Below, in pieces: positions 31,490 through 64,000 of a stretch of DNA of 64,000 nt (the first letter of the stretch is position 1; each line of letters opens with the position of its first letter). Under the pieces are notes generated by a model. The model saw nothing but the letters and a program-made list of their open reading frames with translations, was not told the origin of the DNA and ran no database searches. A program made the translations under genes and the position numbers. Source of the DNA: Bacillota bacterium (GTDB lineage Bacteria; Bacillota; Sulfobacillia; JAJZYS01; JAJYTV01); the NCBI GenBank assembly GCA_021793645.1, contig JAJYSJ010000010.1, positions 36,287-100,286 on the forward strand, given 5' to 3'.

Positions 31490-31565
31490 TCCTCGATAGC
31501 TCAATTGGTAGAGCACCCGGCTGTTAACCGGGTGGTTGCAGGTTCGAGTCCTGCTCGAGGAGCCA
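31490..31565 (+). tRNA. tRNA-Asn(GTT)
   Basis: cloverleaf TCCTCGA...CTGTTAA loop...GTTCGAGTC...TCGAGGAGCCA. Confidence 0.96.
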
Positions 31566-31585
31566 AATTTTTCGAGACCAATCAG

Positions 31586-31660
31586 GGGCCCATAGCTCAG
31601 CGGTAGAGCTGCCGGCTCATAACCGGTTGGTCGCATGTTCGAATCATGCTGGGCCCACCA
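31586..31660 (+). tRNA. tRNA with CAT anticodon, likely tRNA-Ile2 (lysidine)
   Basis: GGGCCCA acceptor, CTCATAA loop, encoded CCA; resembles Bacillota Ile2 rather than initiator Met. Confidence 0.9.
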
Positions 31661-31668
31661 AAAGTTTC

Positions 31669-31743
31669 GGGCGCGTAGCTCAGTGGTAGAGCGCTTGACT
31701 CACATTCAAGAGGTCGCAGGTTCGATACCTGCCGTGCCCACCA
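31669..31743 (+). tRNA. tRNA-Val(CAC)
   Basis: CTTGA-CTCACAT-TCAAG anticodon arm, GTTCGATAC T-loop, CCA end. Confidence 0.95.
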
Positions 31744-50740: not shown

Positions 50741-51810
50741 GTGAACGTTAGCGGCAGCGGCGTCGTCCAAGCCGCGAGCGCCATCGGCGTGGCGGCGTCC
50801 GAGACCGGCACCGTCAGACCGGTTGCAGTCGCGGTAGGAAGTTCGGTGAAGGCTGGGCAGGTGCTCGCCAACGTTACGGACCAAGGCGCCCTCGAGGGGA
50901 ACCTCCTGACGGCGGAGGCCCAGCTTGCAGCGGACGAGGCATCGCTCAGCGCCTTGACCCCTTCCCCCGCGCAGATCAAGGCGCAGGAGCAGAGCGTGCA
51001 GGCGGACGGCTCCAGCCGCGTAGCGCTCTTCCCGGTGACGCTGCGGATCGAGAATCCGCCGACTGGCCTGCGCCAGGGACGTCGCTTGCGAGGCCGATGT
51101 TCGTGATGACCCCCTGCATGGTGCCCTGGTCCAGCGTTCAGACCTGGGCTCCTACCCCGATGCTGAGGTTCGGCAGGTCGATCGAGGGAACGGAGACGGT
51201 CACCTCCGCACTGCCGGTCTTCACCACCTGAAAGAGCGGCGTCCCCGCACCGACCACCTGACCTGGGGTGACATCGACGGTCGAAATGGTGCCGGAGATC
51301 GGCGCGCTGACCGTCATGTCCGCGATGCTCTGCTGGTCCGCCTGTGCCCGAGATCTCGATCGCCCAGGTGCAGGTCGGGCAGCATGCCACCATCACGGCG
51401 GATGCGCTGCCCTGCCAGACGTTCGCGGGCAACGTGTCCGAGATCGCGCCGGCAGGAGCCGTCAGCCAGGGCGTCGCCACCTTCAACGTCACGATCGATG
51501 TCACGAACACAGGAGCCCTGCGCGCCGGATGTCCGCGAACGCCGTCATCGACATCGCGCGGCTCCACCACGTCCTGCTCATCCCCGTCGAGTCGCTGGCC
51601 GGGTATGGCCGCAAGACAACCGTGCAGGTACTCTCACACGGCCTGCCGGTGGTCCGCCACGTGACCGTCGGCCTCTCCAACGACCTCGAGGCCCAGATCA
51701 CCAGCGGGCTCAAACCGGGAACCCGGGTGATCACGGCGAAGGCCTCGCAGGGGGTCCTGCCATTCGTCTCGAGTTCGGGCAGCGGAGGCAGGAGCGGAGG
51801 AGGGTCCTGA
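50741..51810 (+). pseudogene. efflux RND/MFP adaptor subunit(s), scrambled
   Basis: GTV..V.V..G..VKAGQVLA; VQVGQ.ATIT.DA; V.VGLSND...QITSGL..G; internal inverted segment. Confidence 0.75.
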
Positions 51811-51811
51811 G

Positions 51812-52115
51812 GTGACGGACGTCATCCAGGTCATCGACCTTCAGCGGTCCTATCGGATGGGCAGCGTCGAGGTGGCGGCGCTGCGGGCCGTCAACTTCCG
51901 CATTGGCGTTGGCGAGATGGTCGCGATCATGGGACCTCGGGCTCCGGCAAGTCGACGCTCCTGAACCTCCTCGGCTGTCTCGACCGCCCGACGGGCGGCC
52001 ACTACCTCCTCGCCGGTGAGGACGTCGGACGGAAGACGAGCGACGAGCTCGCGGAGATCCGCAATACGCCATCGGGTTCGTGTTCCAGAACTACAACCTG
52101 CTGCCGGGCTGGCGA
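51812..52115 (+). pseudogene. MacB/LolD-type ABC ATPase N-terminal remnant
   Basis: Y.MG.VEV.ALR...GEMVAIMG / [19 protein letters not shown] / [11 protein letters not shown] across frameshifts. Confidence 0.8.
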
Positions 52116-53508: not shown

Positions 53509-53537
53509 TTGACAGCATTCGGAAAACGCGATATAAG
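53509..53537 (+). promoter_or_regulatory. sigA-like promoter for the DGQHR gene
   Basis: TTGACA-N17-TATAAG; RBS GAGGAG at ~53571. Confidence 0.55.
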
Positions 53538-53585
53538 TGAAACCAGATTCCGGTCACGATTCCAGTTCGAGAGGAGAGGGTTGCG

Positions 53586-54806
53586 ATGACCGATGGGCTC
53601 AATGCGTTCGAAACGATCGACCCCACCCGTAAGGCGCTGCTGCAGCAGAGGATTGAGGGCTGCAGCATCGGGAAGACGCCGTCGAAGTTCTTCAAGGTAA
53701 GAGCGGATCTCACGCCCGGAGATCTCATCAAGCTGGTGGGCTACGATCCCAGAACCGTCAACCCTAAGGCAAAGACGCCGGCCAACATCTCTCACGCGCT
53801 AGAAGACCTGATCACGGAAGTGCAGCGTAACATCGACCCGCGGCGAGTGGAGGAGATGGTTGCGTACCTCCACCAGGCTGTGGAGAACGACGGCTACGCC
53901 GACTGGTCAGAGATCGACTTGGTGACCGCTGCCCAGCCGGATACGTCTACGTACGAGACTGACCACGGAGTCGGGTTTCCCCAGGCCACTGAGTACTTCA
54001 TCACAGATGGACAGCATCGCTACTGCGCAATCCTCGACTTCGTAAGGCAATATCCCCCGTACGCAAACCGCTTCACCGTGGCGGTTGCCATTGGGGTGCT
54101 GCCGGAAGGCCGGTTGAGCGCCTGGGCTGGGCAAGCCTTCCACGACAAGAACTACCTGCAGAAGGCAGTGAACGCTACGAAGGCGTTGGCGGTCGACACG
54201 CGTGACTTGCACAACCGCCTGACCAAGGAGCTTACCGATCACCCCGTGATCAAGGCTGCTGGGGGGATCAACCTTTACAAGCAGTCGGTTTCGGCAGGCG
54301 CCCCTGAGTTCGCGACTCATGCCGTCCTCTACAAGTTCGTTCGAGGGTTCGCTGAGGGCCATCGAGGGGTCTACAAGGGGGCGCTGAATAATCCCTCTCT
54401 GACCGACGAGACCTATGAAGCAATCCGCGCGAGCCTTTGGGAGTACCTGGGTTACCTAGGGCAGGCGTTCCCTAGCTGGCGGCTCGTACCTGACAGGGAG
54501 GAGTACCTGTTCCGCGCGAGCGCATCGTTGCAGGCCCTGGGCGTTCTAGGGCACCTGATCTACAGCAGTGTCGACGAGCCTGACCAGCGTAAGCGCCTCA
54601 CGATCAACGTTGGAGAGCGTAACGTAGACTGGCGACGCGCCAACTGGCAGACGTGGGGGATCATGGGGCGGGTCAACGAGGAGACCCATGAAGTCTCCCC
54701 GACGAGCACGCGACAGGTAATAGAGGCGACCATTCAGCTAGTCCGCAATCGCAGCGGCATCGAGAAGTACCTAGAGAGCGGTCGCGCCAGCGATTCCAAC
54801 GCTTAA
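53586..54806 (+). CDS. DGQHR-domain (DndB/ParB-like) protein
   Basis: VQRNIDPRRV..M..YL, ITDGQHRYCAI, Q.FHDKN. Confidence 0.85.
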   Translation: MTDGLNAFETIDPTRKALLQQRIEGCSIGKTPSKFFKVRADLTPGDLIKLVGYDPRTVNPKAKTPANISHALEDLITEVQRNIDPRRVEEMVAYLHQAVENDGYADWSEIDLVTAAQPDTSTYETDHGVGFPQATEYFITDGQHRYCAILDFVRQYPPYANRFTVAVAIGVLPEGRLSAWAGQAFHDKNYLQKAVNATKALAVDTRDLHNRLTKELTDHPVIKAAGGINLYKQSVSAGAPEFATHAVLYKFVRGFAEGHRGVYKGALNNPSLTDETYEAIRASLWEYLGYLGQAFPSWRLVPDREEYLFRASASLQALGVLGHLIYSSVDEPDQRKRLTINVGERNVDWRRANWQTWGIMGRVNEETHEVSPTSTRQVIEATIQLVRNRSGIEKYLESGRASDSNA

Positions 54807-54814
54807 GGGAGTCG

Positions 54815-54858
54815 CACGCCGCGCCAGCAGGTCTGCTAAGAGCTGCTGGCGCGGCGTG
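54815..54858. terminator. 16-bp perfect hairpin after the DGQHR gene
   Basis: CACGCCGCGCCAGCAG-N12-CTGCTGGCGCGGCGTG; no U tract. Confidence 0.55.
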
Positions 54859-54859
54859 G

Positions 54860-54979
54860 CACAATGGCCGGGACTACTACGCCCGACAGGGGAACCGCAT
54901 CGTCTTGCCGAATTCGCCGGCCGAACGACCGTCTCAGGAATACCTCGAATGGCACCGAACCAATGTTTTCATTGTTTAG
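54860..54979 (+). pseudogene. C-terminal remnant of an HNH restriction endonuclease
   Basis: hand translation HNGRDYYARQGNRIVLPNSPAERPSQEYLEWHRTNVFIV*. Confidence 0.7.
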
Positions 54980-55044
54980 GCAGCGAGCAGATCAACACGT
55001 CCAAACCAGCACGGCTGCTGTTGGCCGTACAGGGGGCTTGTCCC

Positions 55045-56019
55045 TTGACCTTTGAAGAGCTCAAGAACTTTGTCGAGTCCGAGATGCGCATGAGCCATAT
55101 TTATCAACCTCTGATGATCCGCGCCTTGGTCGAGGCAGGCGGCGTCGCAACCGTCAGGCAATTGGCGCTTGCGTTCGTCGGTAGAGACGAAAGCCAAATC
55201 CTGCATTACGAGAGGCGAATTCGTGAGATGCCGCTCCGCGTTCTCAAAAACCACGGAGTCGTGCAAGAGGACGGCAAGCTGGTATCTCTATCAACCGAGC
55301 GGCTGACGTTCGAGCAGCGATCGGTCGTCCTCATGGCGTGTGAGCAGAGGATGCAAGAGTTTGTCGCCAAGCGCGGACTGGCTTTGTGGGACTATCGGAT
55401 GCTGGACACTGAGCCCATTCCCGACAGCCTGCGGCTGCGTGTACTTATGGCTTCCGGGCGGCGTTGCGCCCTCTGCGGCGCGACGAGTAGAGAGCGCCCA
55501 CTCGACGTGGATCACATCATCCCGCGATCGCGTGGGGGGAAGACTGTCCTCTCCAACCTGCAGGTCCTGTGCAGCAAGTGCAACCGCAGCAAGGGGAATA
55601 AGGACACGACAGACTTCCGAGTAGATCCTCTCACGCCGTCGGACCCTGACTGCACGTTCTGTGATGGCGAATTGAGGGACCGTGCCGTGTACCATAACGG
55701 CCGCGTCTTCGCCGTAAGGGACAATTACCCTGTCAGCGACGGTCACACCATCATCATCACCCACAGGCATGTACCTGACTTGTTGCAGATGACGGGAACC
55801 GAGACCGCAGAGGCTTACGATCTGATTCGCGTGATCTCCAACGAACTCAGGGGAGAGGACTCGTCGATCACCGGATTCAACGTTGGCGCCAACTGTGGCG
55901 TCGACGCGGGTCAGACGGTAATGCATGCCCACATCCATCTCGTGCCCCGTAGAAGCGGCGACACGCCATCCCCGCGTGGAGGGGTGCGGGGCGTCATTCC
56001 TGACCGCATGGCGTACTGA
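55045..56019 (+). CDS. HNH endonuclease-HIT hydrolase fusion
   Basis: CALCG..DVDHIIPRSRGG....NLQVLCSKCN (HNH) plus CTFC, YPVS.GH, FNVG.N.G..AGQTVMHAHIHLVPRR (HIT). Confidence 0.9.
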   Translation: MTFEELKNFVESEMRMSHIYQPLMIRALVEAGGVATVRQLALAFVGRDESQILHYERRIREMPLRVLKNHGVVQEDGKLVSLSTERLTFEQRSVVLMACEQRMQEFVAKRGLALWDYRMLDTEPIPDSLRLRVLMASGRRCALCGATSRERPLDVDHIIPRSRGGKTVLSNLQVLCSKCNRSKGNKDTTDFRVDPLTPSDPDCTFCDGELRDRAVYHNGRVFAVRDNYPVSDGHTIIITHRHVPDLLQMTGTETAEAYDLIRVISNELRGEDSSITGFNVGANCGVDAGQTVMHAHIHLVPRRSGDTPSPRGGVRGVIPDRMAY

Positions 56020-56065
56020 GGTCACAGATTTCCTCTTAGAGAATTCACAGGGAGGCAACCGGCTC

Positions 56066-56972
56066 ATGATCGACCTGGAGTTCGAACGGCGCGTACGCGA
56101 TGCAGCGATGGCGTGGCTGGACGCCCAAAATCCATCCCGTTCACGCCTCTTCCGGTATGACGACGTTTCGGACTTCACGTTTGAAGGTGAGAGGATCCCC
56201 CTGTTGCCCACGCAGCAGGGCATTCGGAAGCCTGCCGTTCTGTCTGCTGCTCTGTCGATCCGGACAACTTACACTCCCCCCGGTGAAGCCCCACCCTACA
56301 ACGACACTGTTGGTCTCGACGGATTGCACCGCTATAAGTACAGGGGGACCGACCCAGAGCATCACGAGAATGTTGCGTTGCGAATGGCTTTCAGATACCA
56401 TCTGCCGCTGATCTGGTTCGTAGGTGCGTACCGACCTGGCTTCTACTTCGCGCTGTATTTCGGTCATCGATGACGAGATGGACCAACTGCAATTTGTCAT
56501 CGCACTTGACAAGGCAGAGGCGCTCCCAACGGAGGGGAGCGTGCTCAGTCCAGACCAAAGAATTTATGCGGAGCGCATGACAAAGGAGCGCTTGCACCAA
56601 CCGCTATTCCGAGCTTAGGTGCTTCAGGCGTACCAGCAGCAGTGCGCAATCTGTCGGCTGCGGCATGTCTCCTTACTCGACGCGGCGCACATCCTGCCTG
56701 ACGGACATCCGAGGGGTCTCCCCGTCGTGCCTAACGGACTTTCTCTCTGCAAGATCCACCACGCTGCCTATGACGAGAACATCCTCGGTATCCGACCGGA
56801 CCTCGTGGTTGTTGTCCGTGGCGACATCCGCGATGAACGGGACGGCCCGATGCTCTTGCACGGGTTGCAGGAGATGGACGGAACACGCCTCTTGGTTCCG
56901 TCTGTCCGATCCGTTCAACCGGACCATAGCCGTCTTGAAGAGAGGTACGAAGAGTTCCTCAGTGCTGGTTGA
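56066..56972 (+). pseudogene. SRA-like-HNH restriction endonuclease, frameshift ~56460 and TAG at 56616
   Basis: close paralogue of 58509..59408. Confidence 0.85.
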
Positions 56973-57096
56973 TGAGTAGCGCCAGCTTGCCTTATTCAAG
57001 AAGGAGAACGACGTAGCGCCTTTAAGGGTATAAAAGGAGCCTCTTGGTGATGTGCCGAAAGGATACAGATGTCGAGACATTGAGTGAGGGATACGT

Positions 57097-58035
57097 GTGC
57101 CGAAGTGTTTTGTAATTATGCCTTTCTCGGCGACTGCCAACCACTCTGCTGAAGAGTGGACTGAGATCTTTGACGAGATTATCAAGCCGTCGGTGAGGGG
57201 AGCACGCCTCCGCCTAGAGTGCTACCGACTGTCAATAAGACCGGGTTCGTTTATGAAGGACATTGTACGAGAACTTAGAGATGCTGACGTAGTTGTTGCG
57301 GACCTGACCGATAGAAACGCTAATGTATTCTATGAGTTAGGAATTCGTCATTCACTTAAAAATAGAACGGTACTGATAGCGCAGAACATTGAGGACGTTC
57401 CATCGGACCTCCGACAATATGGCATCATTGTTTATGGACGGGGCCCTGGTGAAATTACAAGGTTCAAGGCCGAGATGAGAAACCAGCTGCGCGCTACACT
57501 TGGAACTGCAGAGCGTTCGGATAATCCAGTGTCCGACTTTCTAAGAGATACGGAGGCGGGCCTATTCCACTTCGAGAGAATTCAAACCGTAAGAAAGCTT
57601 GATGCGTTGACTTCTGAACTGTCTCATAATATTTCGTATTGTGAAGCCTTGACAAGACTGATTTCTAAAGCGAGAGACGGACGCAGATCGGTTCCGTCAG
57701 TTCGCCTGCGGGCTGACGCGTTATCGCAATTGCTTGCGACTAATTATGCACTGTTTGATGATTCGCGCCAGCTTAGGCTACTGCATCTGCTGTATGCCGA
57801 TACCGTGCAGGTGAATGTACGCTTGGAGTTTTGGATGTTGTTGCGCCAAGACACTAAGGATGCAGCTCTGAGGGATTTGGAGGCCCGTTTGCAACGCTGT
57901 AGAAACAAGGCTGTGACGGCGTTGAGTTATGTGGGTCAGGCTAAGCGATACTACCAAACTCTATCATCGCCCGACACACGACCGTCGATCGTGGTGCTAG
58001 CCGATGAGAGTCATGAGAGCTTTCTCGGAGAATGA
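57097..58035 (+). CDS. nucleoside 2-deoxyribosyltransferase-like domain protein with helical C-terminus
   Basis: CFVIMPF...ADVVVADLT..NANVFYELGIRH....TVLI.....VP.DL; lower GC. Confidence 0.75.
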   Translation: MPKCFVIMPFSATANHSAEEWTEIFDEIIKPSVRGARLRLECYRLSIRPGSFMKDIVRELRDADVVVADLTDRNANVFYELGIRHSLKNRTVLIAQNIEDVPSDLRQYGIIVYGRGPGEITRFKAEMRNQLRATLGTAERSDNPVSDFLRDTEAGLFHFERIQTVRKLDALTSELSHNISYCEALTRLISKARDGRRSVPSVRLRADALSQLLATNYALFDDSRQLRLLHLLYADTVQVNVRLEFWMLLRQDTKDAALRDLEARLQRCRNKAVTALSYVGQAKRYYQTLSSPDTRPSIVVLADESHESFLGE

Positions 58036-58508
58036 TATCGTGGTCCTGCTCTGAGGGAAGTACCCTGAGCGAGAGTACATCAATTCACCTCACAGAATGT
58101 CCCTTTTGTGAGGTGAACGTACCCGAAGAGGATCCGGAGCCTCCTCAAGCTCGGCTTCATCTCGTCAAAACTGCTTCACGAAAGGTGCGAATGCTGAGAC
58201 CTCTTGATGTGCGATCAAGAGGTAGATCGAGGGGCGACGTCAAGGCACCGCGCTGGCTGATGCGAAGAATCCCTTTGAGCGATACTCTTCGAAATCCGCA
58301 TGGTAGGCGCCCTATAAACTGCACGCTCGGCAGAGTATAGTGGGCGCGCGGCGCGGTTAGGAGGAGTGCCAAACGGTTTTCACGAAGACAGTAAAGTAGA
58401 CGACGTGTCCTGGCTTCTCGCCAACTCGGGCCGATGCCGCCCCTGTTCCGCCGAGTCTTGCAACGGTGTTGGTTTCACTGAGATGCCGGCACGGCAAGGG
58501 GTGATGGT

Positions 58509-59408
58509 ATGGTCGACGAACAATACGAATATTCCGTGCGTAAGGCTGCCATGGACTGGCTACACATGCAAAATCCCAGTGGTTCGCGTCTGCTCCGCTA
58601 TGAAGACGTTGCGTCGTTTACGTTTGAAGGACGAAGGATTCCGCTCATGCCTACTCAACAGGGAATCCGCAAGCCTGCCCACATGTCCGCCGCGTTGTCG
58701 ATTCGCACGACCTTCACCCCACCTGGCGAGGCCCCGCCATACGAAGATGCCATGGGCAAGGACGGTCTACCACGCTACAAGTATCGCGGAACAGACCCAC
58801 AGCACCATGAGAACGTGGCGCTGCGAACCGCTCTCGAGTACCGGCTACCCCTAATTTGGTTCGTTGGCGCGCAGAGTGGCTTGTATGTGCCGGTGTATCC
58901 CGTCTGGATTGTCGGCGAAGAGAAGTCCGAGCTCCAGTTTGTTCTCGCTTTTGACAGGTCGGATGTACTTCTGGCATCCGATGATACCGACCGTCGCCAC
59001 TACGTAGAGCGCGTGACGAAAGAACGCCTGCACCAGACTGTGTTTCGGGCGCAAGTGCTCCAAGCTTACGAGCAAAGCTGCGCGATCTGCCGCCTGCGGC
59101 ACGTATCCCTTCTCGAAGCTGCCCACATCCTGCCCGACGGACATCCGAGGGGGCTTCCGGTGGTGCCGAATGGGTTGTCCCTGTGCAAGATGCATCACGC
59201 AGCCTATGATCAGAATCTCCTTGGCATCCGCCCAGACTTCGTCGTGGAAGTGCGCGCGGACGTCCTTCGCGAGCACGACGGACCGATGCTCTTGCATGGC
59301 TTACAGGAAATGGATGGTGTACCTCTTCTTGTCCCGGCATCGCGTAGCGCACGACCAGACCCGAGCCGCCTCGAGGAACGGTATAAGGAGTTCCTACAGG
59401 CCGGGTGA
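58509..59408 (+). CDS. putative modification-dependent HNH restriction endonuclease (SRA/PUA-like N-domain)
   Basis: GIRKP, PYED..G.DG..RYKYRG.D...N.ALR.A; RLHQ..FR..VL.AY...CAIC, AAHI, NGLSLC..HH.AYD. Confidence 0.85.
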   Translation: MVDEQYEYSVRKAAMDWLHMQNPSGSRLLRYEDVASFTFEGRRIPLMPTQQGIRKPAHMSAALSIRTTFTPPGEAPPYEDAMGKDGLPRYKYRGTDPQHHENVALRTALEYRLPLIWFVGAQSGLYVPVYPVWIVGEEKSELQFVLAFDRSDVLLASDDTDRRHYVERVTKERLHQTVFRAQVLQAYEQSCAICRLRHVSLLEAAHILPDGHPRGLPVVPNGLSLCKMHHAAYDQNLLGIRPDFVVEVRADVLREHDGPMLLHGLQEMDGVPLLVPASRSARPDPSRLEERYKEFLQAG

Positions 59409-59903: not shown

Positions 59904-60491
59904 TCACGAGTTCTGTGGCCGCGGGTCCTGCTGCTTGCGGACCGTGGTCAGTGCATTGATCAGCTCCGTGCGCTCCCACAACTCCACCTGGTTGGACCTC
60001 GCAAGTGTTTTGGCCGGTGCCGTGAAGTACGTGTTGGTGATCACTATGGCGTGCTGCGCATGGTACATGCTCATGGCGCTCACCACCTCTTGGACAGCAC
60101 TCACACCAACCTTGCGATCAAGACTGTACCGCTTTGCTTGGACGACGGTGGTTGTTCCGTTCTTGTGCAGCACCAGATCTGCTCCGTAATCGCCCGAGAC
60201 TTTTGTGTGTCTTACCGAGTAACCGAGATCCCGAAAGAGAAGACCGAGCTTCCGCTCAAAGGTGCGGCCATCCATCTGGTCGATTTCAGCAATTCCCGAC
60301 TTCCTGATCCGTTCACGCTGTTGCCAAGCCGAATAGACGAAGGCACCGACACCGGCGATGAAGAGCACAACGCCGATCAGGAGCACGATAGGATGCCTCT
60401 GCAGCCAGCCAAGTCCCACAATGGCGAGCAGCAGGGGGAATGCTGCTGCGCCACCGGGGAGAGTACCTGCCCTACGGCGAGAACGCCTCAT
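59904..60491 (-). CDS. membrane-anchored Mrr-like restriction endonuclease
   Basis: two N-terminal TMs; M.G..FE..L..LF..LGY.V..T..SGDYGADL, VQAKRY, AVQE, TN.YFT.PA..LA. Confidence 0.85.
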   Translation of the reverse strand: MRRSRRRAGTLPGGAAAFPLLLAIVGLGWLQRHPIVLLIGVVLFIAGVGAFVYSAWQQRERIRKSGIAEIDQMDGRTFERKLGLLFRDLGYSVRHTKVSGDYGADLVLHKNGTTTVVQAKRYSLDRKVGVSAVQEVVSAMSMYHAQHAIVITNTYFTAPAKTLARSNQVELWERTELINALTTVRKQQDPRPQNS

Positions 60492-60559
60492 CTTGGACCT
60501 CCCATTGCACATTACGCCGACCGCCGAGGCGAGCCGATGCGGGATGCCTCGCACGCGCT

Positions 60560-60702: not shown

Positions 60703-61488
60703 TTAGCTAATGGTCCCCGCTACGAATCGCTCTGTTTCATCTGCAGTTTGCCGGGCTGTGGTGTACTCCCTCACGACGCCAGCGAATCGCCAAAGGCCGA
60801 CAAAGAAGCCAATTATCCAGCCAAAAGAGATGCCGAACATCAGCACCAGGAAGAAGGGGATGGCGCCACCGAGTAATCCAGCGTAGGCGGCAGCGCCAAA
60901 CGATTTGACGATAAAGTTCCAGCCCCAGTACAGGCCAAGGGCATAGAATGGTCCGGCGATGATACCTGAACCGCCCATTGCACCGATTCCGATAATCGCA
61001 CCAATCACCGCGACAGCGATGCTTATCCATATGGTGTTCTGCAGGCGTTTAAGGTAGAGGCGGTTGTTGGCCAACAGACATTCTGGACATGCCGTCATAG
61101 TGAACAGTCCGGCGCATTCGGTGCACAGGCCTTTGCCGCAGAACTGGCATGCCGCCACTGCAGTTCGGTCGGAGTGCCTGCGGCAGCCGATGGTGGAAGA
61201 AGCGTGGCCCTGTGATGCATCAGGCCCGTAGGCGTTCCCCGTGTTCCCCGTACTGCCAGCTTGGTGAGCACCGAAATGGCTTCGGTCATAGGCGGAACGT
61301 TTCTGCGGGTTGCCAAGTACCGAGTAGGCTTCGTTTACTTCCCTAAGCCTCTCTGCAGCCAGATGAGCCAGGGGGTTGCCAACGTGACGGTCTGGGTGCA
61401 GTTCCATAGCCAACTTGCGGTAGGTCTGTTTGATTTCTTCATTTGTCGCTGTAGTGGAGACGCCCAACACTGAGTACAGATCAGCCGT
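60703..61488 (-). CDS. DnaJ-domain/B-box-like zinc finger membrane protein
   Basis: DLYSVLGV...A...EIK..YRKLA..LHPD, NEAY.VL; C..H.......C..C...LC..C; C-terminal TMs; ACG at the expected start after GGGGAGG. Confidence 0.8.
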   Translation of the reverse strand, partial: TADLYSVLGVSTTATNEEIKQTYRKLAMELHPDRHVGNPLAHLAAERLREVNEAYSVLGNPQKRSAYDRSHFGAHQAGSTGNTGNAYGPDASQGHASSTIGCRRHSDRTAVAACQFCGKGLCTECAGLFTMTACPECLLANNRLYLKRLQNTIWISIAVAVIGAIIGIGAMGGSGIIAGPFYALGLYWGWNFIVKSFGAAAYAGLLGGAIPFFLVLMFGISFGWIIGFFVGLWRFAGVVREYTTARQTADETERFVAGTIS

Positions 61489-61586: not shown

Positions 61587-63669
61587 ATGCCGACCTATCT
61601 TCGTCGAAAGATGCAGACGGAAACGGTTGCCGTACTTGTGGATATCGAGGTTATTGAAGGATCAACCGTGCACCGGAAGGACGGCTTGTACTCCGCACTC
61701 GTCGAAGTCGAGGGCGAGGTCTTCAACATGCTGTCGCTCTCAGAGCAGGACGCTCGGCTGGAGGCTTACGCCCGAGTCCTGAATGGCCTGCCAGAAAAGT
61801 GAGTTCTTCAGGCGACGCTGTTTGTGGAGCCCATCGACATCTCGGGGTATATCAGGCAGATGAAAGACGCCCGAACCGTCGAGGGTGACACAGCGATCGG
61901 CCGTCTTGCGGAGGCGCAGGCGGCGATGGCTGAGGAGATGGCAAGCCACGTCTTGGCCAAGAGCACCGTCCTGACCCTGACCGGCAACAGCGCGCAGGAG
62001 GCGGAGGCGAACGGGAAGCGGCTCCTGCAGCTTCTCGCCGCCAACGGCTCCAAAGCACATCGCTGCGACCCAGAGCGGATCGGCCACATCCTCCAGGTCT
62101 GCTACGGGCACGCACCGGTGCCTCTCTCCGAGGTCGTGGGCGGCGTGAACGCCCTGCTGCAGCGAGGGAAGGCCGGCAGTGAACGTGCCGCACGCAGCCC
62201 GAAGAGGGGGGAGATACGGCTCGCACCGGAGGAGGGCGATGTACTCTCCAAAGACGCCGTGCGCCTCTCGGATATACTGACGCCTTCCGCCGTGGTGGAG
62301 CGACCAGGTCAGCTTGATCTGGGCGGCAGCTATGCGGCGAGTCTCGTTGTCGTCGCCTACCCGGAGCGGGCGACGAACGCCTGGCTCGAGCGTCTCCTGC
62401 ACTTCACGCACAAGAACGTGTGCCGGCGGGTCAGCATGTTCATCGAGCCGATCTCCTCCGCGAAGGCCGTGCAGGAACTCCAGCGCAAGCTCCTCGATCT
62501 CGACGTGAACTCGCGCTGGTCGATGCGGCGCGGCATGGGGCCGGATATCGCCACGGAGATCGGACTCGAGGATGCAGAGCAGCTTCCGCTACGAGATTGG
62601 CCGCAGCACCCAGCGCATGTTTGACGTCACGATGCTCGTGACGCTCATGGCTGATACGCCAGAGGATCTGCGGGAAGCCGTAGACCTGCTGAAGCAGGAC
62701 GCGGCAGGATACTCTCTCGTCCTGTGCGAGACATGGCTTGAGGAGGCGCCGGCGTTCCGCTTGACGATGCCGGTCGGAAACGCGGTGATCCGGCGGGTGC
62801 GGCCGATTCCGACGCTCCCGGTCGCGACGACCTTCCCCTTCACGTCTTGCGAGATCTTGCACGAGCAGGGCGAGATGTGGGGGCGAAATCTTTCGACGGG
62901 CAACGCAGTGATCGTCGACCCTGCACGCTACAGCCCGGCACATATCCTGATCGTCGCGAAGACACGGTCGGGTAAGTCCTTCGTAATGAAGGTATTGGCG
63001 ACCCAGGCACTCTTCTCACCGGACCAGGACGTGATAGTGCTGGACCCCTCGGCCTCGATCGACTACGAGCGGTGGACAAGGCTGCTCGGCGGCGCCTACT
63101 TCCGCTTCGGCGCGGGCTCCGAGGACCGCCTGAATCCTTGCGAGATTCTATTGCCCTTCCACATGCAGCGGCTCGACGAGGACATGCGGCGACCGGTGAA
63201 GGCCAAGATCGCTTCCCTGCAGAGCCTCTTCGAGCTGATGGCCTACCCACGCGGGCACATGCCCCAGGAGGAGCGGGTGCTGCTCGAGGAGCCGCTCCGG
63301 TCCATGTACGAGGAGTTCGGCATGACCGACGACTGGCAGAGCATTGTGGACCGGACGGCGATCTCTGCGGTGCCGCGCGCGAAGAAGTCTCCGACGCTAA
63401 GAGACGCCATGCGGCACATCGAAGCTGTGGAGGGGCTCCGGCCGCTCGCTCTGAAGCTGAGGCCATTCGTGGACGGGACGCTCGACATGTTCTCCGGGGA
63501 GACGAACCTTGACCTTGGCGGGCGGCTCGTCGTCTTCAACGTCCATGGGCTCGTGCAAGGGCAGCAGGGGCGACATCTCCAGGCGGTCGCCTACGCGATG
63601 ATCGCGGAGTACGTGCGCTGGCGCATGGCGATGGCGAGGCGACGCCTGCTCGTCGTGGTGGACGAGGCG
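61587..63669 (+). pseudogene. VirB4/TraE-like conjugal transfer ATPase (TGA at 61800, frameshift ~62590, truncated)
   Basis: HILIVAKTRSGKSF Walker A, VLDP, LVVFN, LLVVVDEA Walker B. Confidence 0.8.
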
Positions 63670-63691
63670 GTATCACGCGGGACCGTCACGG

Positions 63692-63742
63692 TGTCAATAT
63701 CTTCGGTGAAATGTCAATATCCGCGGCTCCGTGAAATCCGCC
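63692..63742. mobile_element. IS21-family-like terminal inverted repeat
   Basis: TGTCAATATC repeated at 63692 and 63712 with GTGAAAT sub-repeats; 5'-TG end; follows the virB4 truncation. Confidence 0.55.
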
Positions 63743-64000
63743 TTCTGTGGCTTTGTCATAGTGTTTTCCCAGGGCGATGCGAGATCCCCGTCCAACCGCT
63801 TTACTCGTAGCCGCCGAGCGCCCACGTCACACCCTGTCGCGCGCGTTCCCCTGCGAGTCGCTAAGTAGCCGGCGTCATCTTTCTGTTGCTCCTTCACGTC
63901 TTGGCGCACTCGCAGACCGCTCTACTTCCTGATGTCTTACGTGCGGTCGGGCAGAGCCACAGCGAGGTTAGCACGCCTCTGTGCTTGAGCCACGTCGGAT

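Follow-up and report, generated by a model that had tools for sequence, protein, structure and literature searches.

The window analyzed here is a 64,000-nucleotide (nt) stretch of a Bacillota bacterium genome (contig JAJYSJ010000010.1, positions 36,287 to 100,286 of the forward strand), and our subject is an array of co-oriented genes at 53.5-59.4 kb within it. The array begins with a stand-alone gene of the DGQHR/DndB family, behind which lie the stump of an HNH_2 nuclease gene, a gene for an HNH-HIT fusion, a broken SRA-HNH gene, a gene for an NDT-like protein, and an intact SRA-HNH gene (Table 1). The original prediction for this locus had combined these genes into one anti-phage module headed by the DGQHR protein. 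Its gene list held: the open reading frame (ORF) map and family scans recovered every element in its place and on the plus strand, including an HNH remnant, which is the 39-codon HNH_2 stump, and the pair of a decayed and an intact SRA-like-HNH gene. The assignments of the first gene to the DGQHR/DndB family, by two domain models and an intact motif, and of the NDT-like protein, by the fold of its N-domain, were likewise borne out by the matches given below. Dnd genes had been described as missing, and DndC or DndD matches over cut-off are absent from the whole genome, which is 96.3% complete.

Table 1. Features of the array, of its surroundings in the window, and of the DNA behind DGQHR relatives in other loci (L numbers). 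Positions are those of the window unless a locus is named; aa, amino acids.
Feature	Position	Strand	Details
Promoter-like TTGACA-17 nt-TATAAG	53509-53537	+	upstream of DGQHR gene; read directly off the sequence
Stand-alone DGQHR/DndB-like ParB-fold protein	53586-54806	+	406 aa; PF14072, TIGR03187
Terminator-like GC-rich hairpin	54815-54858	+	directly 3' of DGQHR stop; no U-tract
HNH_2 gene stump, last 39 codons	54857-54973	+	tblastn to paralogue on contig C37
HNH-HIT fusion	55045-56019	+	324 aa, TTG start; PF01844 + PF01230
SRA-HNH pseudogene, diverged paralogue	56066-56972	+	DNA alignment with intact copy
NDT/DNPH1/MilB-like protein	57097-58035	+	312 aa; fold match of N-domain
Intact SRA-HNH	58509-59408	+	299 aa; PF13391, SRA fold
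MacB/LolD-type ABC ATPase gene, wrecked 5' part	51812-52106	+	two frameshifts, cut after ...FQNYNLLP
Mrr-type restriction endonuclease	59904-60554	-	216 aa; PF04471 Mrr_cat E 2.2e-31; N-terminal hydrophobic/predicted membrane segment
DnaJ-domain membrane protein	60703-61470	-	255 aa; J-domain, Cys-rich stretch, C-terminal multi-pass hydrophobic region
VirB4/CD1110-type conjugative transfer ATPase, decayed	61824-63810	+	two overlapping frames
CBASS (patatin, CD-NTase, E1, JAB) behind DGQHR relative	L001:7932-13720	same strand	gap 20 nt
DarT-Macro (DarTG) behind DGQHR relative	L006:2-2948	same strand	
LmuA-like STAND NTPase behind DGQHR relative	L007:6999-12541, also L013	same strand	
Two Pycsar cyclases behind DGQHR relative	L012:1-2768	same strand	gap 89 nt
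DUF4062 protein behind DGQHR relative (weaker case)	L002		gap 26 nt
NYN/HEPN/AAA_16 behind DGQHR relative (weaker case)	L009		

The promoter-like sequence that had been called sigA-like is readable upstream of the DGQHR gene, but its final G kept it off the list of a consensus scan, and sites of this kind were not above chance in the region (3 found vs 3.4 expected from shuffled sequence). A single RNA run matched only 33-35 nt, in a conserved ABC ATPase segment at 52072-52106, and no Rfam families were found in 48-64 kb. PHROGs gave no named function past HNH and restriction endonuclease. Contigs assembled from the short reads of two public DNA runs matched the pseudogene stretch with 0 differences; these runs are possibly the genome's own source sample and so are not independent of the assembly, and within this data set the stretch is no assembly error. 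GC content at third codon positions (GC3) across the four intact genes was, in order, 0.76, 0.72, 0.50, and 0.64.

Relatives of the array genes were examined for co-occurrence. For the DGQHR gene, 27 loci were fetched, comprising 24 true relatives (3 genomic and 21 metagenomic, 39-68% identity) and L025-L027 (20-21% identity, E approximately 1e-4), which were left out of the counts as non-relatives. The loci were searched by tblastn with the HNH-HIT fusion, both pseudogene pieces, the NDT-like protein, the intact SRA-HNH protein, and the Mrr-type and DnaJ-domain proteins that follow the array. None of the 24 carried any other array family, and there were 0 matches in all 27. Full-length HNH-HIT genes (8 viral and 2 genomic loci, 39-62% identical) were accompanied by DGQHR, SRA-HNH, NDT-like, or Mrr genes in 0 of 10 cases. 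Two array families were found together in 0 of 100 viral loci, which had been fetched by HNH-HIT (79), the NDT-like protein (19), or SRA-HNH (2). The original prediction depended on joint occurrence of these families, and the homologues never co-occur in the 24, 10, and 100 loci, an indication that they accumulated independently in a defense hotspot.

These counts bear most directly on the proposal of a single integrated system, in which the DGQHR and SRA domains would read modified phage DNA, HNH would cut it, and the HIT and NDT-like proteins would deplete nucleotides or signal through them. The co-orientation of the genes favors such a system, as does the plausible action of several parts on modified DNA or nucleotides. 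In addition, the HIT half of the fusion matched the PADLOC model for ThsC (2.4e-10), and, according to the available portion of PMC8565338, 2.4% of TIR-based Thoeris systems include a HIT protein of the ThsC type. However, no ThsA or ThsB matches were obtained among the eight window proteins scanned with PADLOC, the composition of the array is heterogeneous, a stump and a pseudogene lie inside it, and the lack of co-occurrence already largely refutes the proposal, which we regard as very improbable. Of the original interpretation, the domain calls were right, and several of the genes may plausibly defend against modified DNA, but one integrated DGQHR-headed system is unsupported.

The DGQHR protein matched PF14072 over residues 77-389 (76.7 bits, cut-off 29.1; E 2.2e-21) and TIGR03187 at 64.6 bits (cut-off 58.85), and its motif, D141-G-Q-H-R145, was invariant in 34 aligned relatives. 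Its gene is the only DndB-family gene of the genome. A true DndB equivalog (TIGR03233) was considered and rejected, with 45.5 bits against a cut-off of 328. The protein belongs to a subfamily of 155 relatives of approximately 410 aa with 39-67% identity. A scan of genome contigs with the single DGQHR sequence gave 60 pattern matches and no relatives and was repeated using the family alignment; viral contigs scanned with that alignment gave no relatives. Among 72,556 plasmids there was no match to the subfamily at 1e-20, and relaxing the threshold to 1e-5 brought in only four remote DndB-like matches with 23-26% identity, of which three coincided with genes annotated as dndB. A PDB sequence search with the protein returned nothing. 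Pfam and PADLOC scans of the neighbors found no dnd genes near the 24 loci with DGQHR relatives. The subfamily is not treated in the available portions of the papers that mention DGQHR, PMC3632139 among them.

Downstream DNA of at least 900 nt was present in 16 of the DGQHR loci, or 14 independent loci after L007 was merged with L013 and L018 with L019. In 4 of the 14, the DGQHR gene was followed immediately by a recognized defense cassette on its own strand; two more were weaker cases, and the other 8 had unknown small ORFs or opposite-strand genes in that position. Closely related DGQHR genes differed in their neighbors. Those of L001 and L012 are 81% identical, yet CBASS follows one and Pycsar the other; those of L002 and L007 are also 81% identical, yet they precede a DUF4062 protein and a STAND protein, respectively. 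The small ORFs matched no Pfam family (no PC4) and resembled each other only in near-identical loci, and no conserved partner gene of any size was found for the DGQHR relatives. The window NDT-like protein and the DUF4062 protein of L002 had no detectable similarity. Integrases, a relaxase, a transposase, or phage genes lay near DGQHR relatives in several loci, and a relaxase or integrase adjoined them in L005, L009, and L010.

These arrangements could mean that the DGQHR gene is a portable front gene, a DndB-like ParB-fold nucleotide switch that represses or licenses the cassette downstream, which would make the array a regulatory, not a mechanistic, unit. The cassettes in 4 of 14 loci and the two weaker cases fit this explanation, and the available portions of PMC10853773 and PMC4507180 present DndB as a repressor of dnd operon transcription whose activity ATP modulates. 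However, the DGQHR gene of the window is followed by a strong hairpin and a gene stump, 8 of the 14 loci have no such cassette downstream, and the 14 upstream regions share no operator-like motif or conserved inverted repeat. The lack of a conserved small partner also speaks against it, and the enrichment of defense genes would be equally expected if the DGQHR gene were itself an island-dwelling defense gene. We consider a front gene of this kind unlikely. It is also rather unlikely, if somewhat less so, that the approximately 410-aa subfamily senses invading DNA or nucleotide status and gates or assists the cassette behind it, with the hairpin as an attenuator. The gated cassettes may in that case be CBASS, DarTG, Pycsar, and STAND NTPases, and, in the window, a shifting succession of type IV nucleases. 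The placement of the DGQHR gene may fit an island-dwelling defense gene or a portable regulator or sensor alike.

The hairpin behind the DGQHR gene had a minimum free energy of -45.4 kcal/mol (z -4.85), and 0 of 200 shuffled sequences folded as well. The 39 residues of the stump were 72% identical (tblastn E 3e-14) to residues 291-329 of a 330-aa HNH_2-type protein encoded elsewhere in the same genome (G000 C37:81213-82205, minus strand). This intact paralogue has a different N-terminal domain, and by sequence the stump is best described as the relic of a deleted third nuclease gene of the HNH_2 family. Because the stump lies between the two genes, the HNH-HIT gene neighbors the DGQHR gene only through deletion. 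The HNH-HIT ORF as such spans 54856-56019, and its 5' extension carries the stump, which is outside the real gene; the TTG at 55045 was taken as the start because relatives are almost all 324 aa long.

The HNH-HIT fusion has an HNH domain (PF01844, 1.9e-14), a HIT domain (PF01230, 1e-16), and a conserved N-terminal domain of approximately 130 aa. The best PDB sequence match of the HIT half was 3imi (E 2.4e-14), end to end and covering the HxHxH motif. The residues invariant in 26 sequences included two CxxC motifs, a DH, an N, and H294, H296, and H298. Searched against the Protein Atlas, the first 135 residues gave only unnamed clusters and no structure. The family has more than 1,766 proteins, typically of 324 aa and 58-63% identical, across phyla. 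Among 401 genomes of the window's phylum, 3 had the full-length fusion; the other 38 matches in this sample covered mostly the HIT part only, and one the N-terminal part only. Large serine recombinases were neighbors in 5 of the 8 viral loci and a DNA methylase in 1 of the 8, and HsdM (type I) was a neighbor in 1 of the 2 genomic loci; such positions are typical of accessory genes in prophages and restriction-modification islands. The plasmid collection had no HNH-HIT match at 1e-40, and in the phage collection the sole match was partial, spanning HNH+HIT (query residues 168-324), and came from phage phiSASD1, present under two accessions. In the literature searched, no paper naming an HNH-HIT or HIT-HNH protein was found, and HNH with a histidine triad in an anti-phage context was found only in the PADLOC paper.

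The intact SRA-HNH protein matched PF13391 (HNH_2, E 4e-10) and belongs to a family of 3,843 proteins, with H206, N221, H229, H230, C194, and C226 invariant in 36 sequences. No PDB sequence match was found at E 0.1. In an AlphaFold2 (AF2) model built from these 36 sequences (pLDDT 78), residues 9-176 form an SRA fold that matched SUVH5 with Z 10.6 (root-mean-square deviation [rmsd] 3.0, 125 aligned), the ScoMcrA SRA with Z 8.4, and UHRF1 with Z of approximately 8. The whole chain matched TagI (6ghs) best (Foldseek E 5.4e-6 over 284 columns; VIA Z 8.7), and the C-terminal part matched the VcaM4I HNH with Z 7.2. A phosphorothioate-dependent SBD-HNH enzyme (NF045808) was ruled out, since the match reached 56.5 bits against 180 and covered only the HNH half (model positions 157-271). 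The SRA fold, the TagI match, and the score below the NF045808 cut-off together indicate an enzyme of the TagI/ScoA3IV type, not an SBD enzyme. The protein is thus a predicted modification-dependent (type IV) restriction endonuclease on the basis of its model. No C5 DNA methyltransferase (PF00145) match was found in the 96.3%-complete genome, which is compatible with cleavage limited to DNA with 5-methylcytosine or 5-hydroxymethylcytosine by the predicted enzyme.

Alignment with the intact copy showed that the pseudogene has a 5-nt deletion after 56461, which causes a frameshift, and that a TAG stands at 56616-56618; its match falls into two segments, with 1 TAG. Its decay was recent, as judged from intact metagenome orthologues that are 85-92% identical. 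These orthologues also bear on whether the HNH-HIT fusion and the adjacent SRA-HNH protein act together as a two-gene cassette, the partner having decayed in the window with the second, intact paralogue compensating. HNH-HIT relatives (84-87%) and SRA-HNH orthologues (85-92%) occurred on equal-sized contigs from the same sources (8617 nt from Logan, 3505 and 1526 nt from JGI, and 3410 nt from ENA), and the 1526-nt contig encodes both a 313-aa SRA-HNH protein and an HNH-HIT fragment of 82 aa, which implies that the two are adjacent as in the window. However, the identity of the contigs was deduced from sizes alone, and the best 120 matches of each family share only the 8617-nt contig size. At greater distance the pairing was absent (0 of 10 full-length HNH-HIT loci), and synteny at 84-92% identity may reflect no more than the shared ancestry of one element. 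According to the available portion of PMC6212794, TagI and other SRA-HNH enzymes are active on their own. These matches suggest adjacency of HNH-HIT and SRA-HNH in close relatives only, and joint action of the two is, in our judgment, quite improbable.

The NDT-like protein was modeled by AF2 with a pLDDT of 92.5 as a flavodoxin-like N-domain (residues 1 to approximately 140) followed by a helical C-terminal domain of approximately 170 residues. In VIA-align comparisons, the N-domain matched MilB with Z 13.9 (rmsd 3.1, 136 aligned), DNPH1 with Z 13.7, NDT with Z 13.1, and TIR with Z 13.1; these scores lie within 1 unit of each other, and fold scores from the model alone cannot separate the NDT from the TIR branch. 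Foldseek matched the protein to NDT 9emx (E 5.1e-4, probability 1.00). MilB and DNPH1 are N-glycosidases of hydroxymethyl-pyrimidine nucleotides, with MilB acting on CMP and hydroxymethyl-CMP. D69, E80, and H85 were invariant, and the D69/E80 segment (...VVVAD..N.NV.YELG...) is presumably similar to the catalytic segment of DNPH1 and NDT. By sequence, the match to PF05014 stayed at 12.2 bits (E 0.21; cut-off 28.8), no Pfam model covers the N-domain family, and a PDB sequence search with the protein found nothing. The N-domain family has 16,476 representatives at E 1e-3 and is joined to varied C-termini, including radical SAM, FGE-sulfatase, TPR, HTH, and SEC-C.

Taken together, these data make it probable that 53.5-59.4 kb is a defense island in a degraded integrative or conjugative element, in which separately acquired and separately acting single-gene modules form a mosaic in varied states of decay. 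The array families are large, have contexts of their own, and do not co-occur; closely related DGQHR genes have differing neighbors; and the hairpin, stump, pseudogene, and differing GC3 indicate separate origin and turnover. The domain architectures, absent co-occurrence, decay, and foreign composition are observations; for the mechanisms of the modules we infer the following. The SRA-HNH protein would act like TagI/ScoA3IV, its SRA pocket flipping out a modified cytosine and HNH cutting nearby, and the genome could tolerate such cutting because no C5-methyltransferase was found. HNH-HIT would be a nuclease that works autonomously, its HIT half acting on a nucleotide-phosphoramidate or adenylate bond. 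The NDT/DNPH1-like protein would be an N-glycosidase of the nucleotide pool or NAD, with the helical C-domain as a sensor or oligomerizer. The DGQHR protein could be an NTP-binding, DNA-associated protein of ParB fold that works alone or as a local regulator, and the Mrr-type protein a further type IV nuclease.

Several points weigh against a mosaic of independent modules. The array has five co-oriented genes with gaps of 46-473 nt, and co-transcription is still possible. In several loci, DGQHR relatives lie 20-90 nt upstream of known defense cassettes, a distance at which functional coupling is possible. The HNH-HIT gene and the orthologue of the broken SRA-HNH gene are apparently on the same small contigs, judged by equal sizes, in at least four metagenome assemblies, and these two genes may therefore move or function as a pair. 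The samples are small (10 HNH-HIT loci and, for DGQHR, 14 independent loci whose downstream DNA could be read), and very remote analogues would escape the tblastn threshold of E 1e-3.

The surroundings of the array were also consistent with an island in a decayed element. On the left, homology of the ABC ATPase gene to a paralogous operon on contig C30 (82% identical, near 182.3 kb) ends at 52106, contigs of other ABC genes diverge from the window after the same position, and GC content is 0.645 before 52000 vs 0.584 after 52107. The junction 52106/52107 in this gene is the left edge of lower-GC foreign DNA. The frame changes of the ATPase gene are visible in three-frame translation. As a separate observation, the MacA/MacB-like efflux operon at 50741-52106 is decayed, with its adaptor gene split over several frames. 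No tRNA was found at the island edge. A tRNA cluster (Asn-GTT, Met-CAT, Val-CAC) is present at 31490-31743, far from the edge, and the island is therefore not tRNA-inserted on that side.

To the right of the array, the Mrr-type protein matched the PADLOC models for the ZorD nuclease part and mREase_IV and is a further stand-alone island member. Membrane-anchored Mrr-type nucleases are unusual. The second VirB4 ORF matched NF045971 (E 2.3e-48) and the first ORF weakly. A second VirB4 copy, 71% identical in DNA, is present on another contig (G000 C79:12087-13488), and the genome thus has at least 2 related conjugative-element remnants. The part examined yielded neither an integrase nor a relaxase; the contig stops 8 kb past the window. 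ORFs past the window end (G000 C26:103844-105360) suggest, by sequence, an MNT-like nucleotidyltransferase and a VapB/VapC (PIN) toxin-antitoxin.

The VirB4 remnants begin 2.4 kb downstream of the array, and with the relaxase or integrase genes beside DGQHR relatives in L005, L009, and L010 they could mean that the array serves the element itself, the ParB-like protein in partition or fertility inhibition (as Osa) and the nucleases in competition between elements. A part in plasmid conflict is attributed to ParB/Srx proteins, Osa among them, by work cited in the available portion of PMC10853773. However, the DGQHR subfamily was not found on any of the 72,556 plasmids, most of its members adjoin defense cassettes, not transfer genes, and the element in the window is itself decayed. 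A role in serving the element is extremely unlikely.

Read as a mosaic defense island, the array is ordinary, if well stocked, and does not merit an entry as a new multi-gene system. What makes it useful is that it draws attention to three widespread families, namely the HNH-HIT fusion, the NDT/DNPH1-like N-domain, and the DGQHR subfamily; no experimental studies of these were found in the literature searched. The DGQHR gene as a leader and the HNH-HIT/SRA-HNH pair may be kept as leads beside the mosaic. If the placement of the DGQHR gene does reflect regulation or sensing, it would represent a new class of leader gene for defense cassettes.

Comparison with known systems showed both shared and differing features for each module. 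The window DGQHR protein has the ParB-like DGQHR domain in common with DndB of DndABCDE, but it is only 23-26% identical to annotated DndB proteins, and its relatives adjoin CBASS, DarTG, Pycsar, and STAND genes, not dnd genes. Regulator-headed defense cassettes of the BrxR/CapW type are known; the window, in contrast, has no identified WYL or HTH regulator. The HIT half of the fusion retains the HxHxH motif of the HIT superfamily (HinT, Ap4A phosphorylase), and its HNH half matches PF01844 and PtuB models, as expected of PtuB/McrA-type HNH, although no PtuA partner was found among the 8 proteins scanned. Unlike the known HIT and HNH proteins, it is a fusion in one polypeptide with an extra N-terminal domain. 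With Thoeris type II it shares the ThsC-like HIT half, whereas ThsA and the TIR protein ThsB were not matched in the eight proteins. The N-domain of the NDT-like protein superposes on the MilB/DNPH1 (Rcl)/NDT fold and on TIR, but the MilB, DNPH1, and NDT enzymes are without its 170-residue helical C-terminal domain. The window SRA-HNH protein has the two-domain architecture of TagI, ScoA3IV (Sco5333), and TbiR51I along its full length; it is also close to TagI in length (299 vs 285 aa), but the two are only 19% identical, and one of the two window copies is broken. The locus as a whole most resembles the defense islands of integrative and conjugative elements, with which it has in common clustered unrelated defense genes, foreign DNA, turnover, pseudogenes, and transfer remnants.

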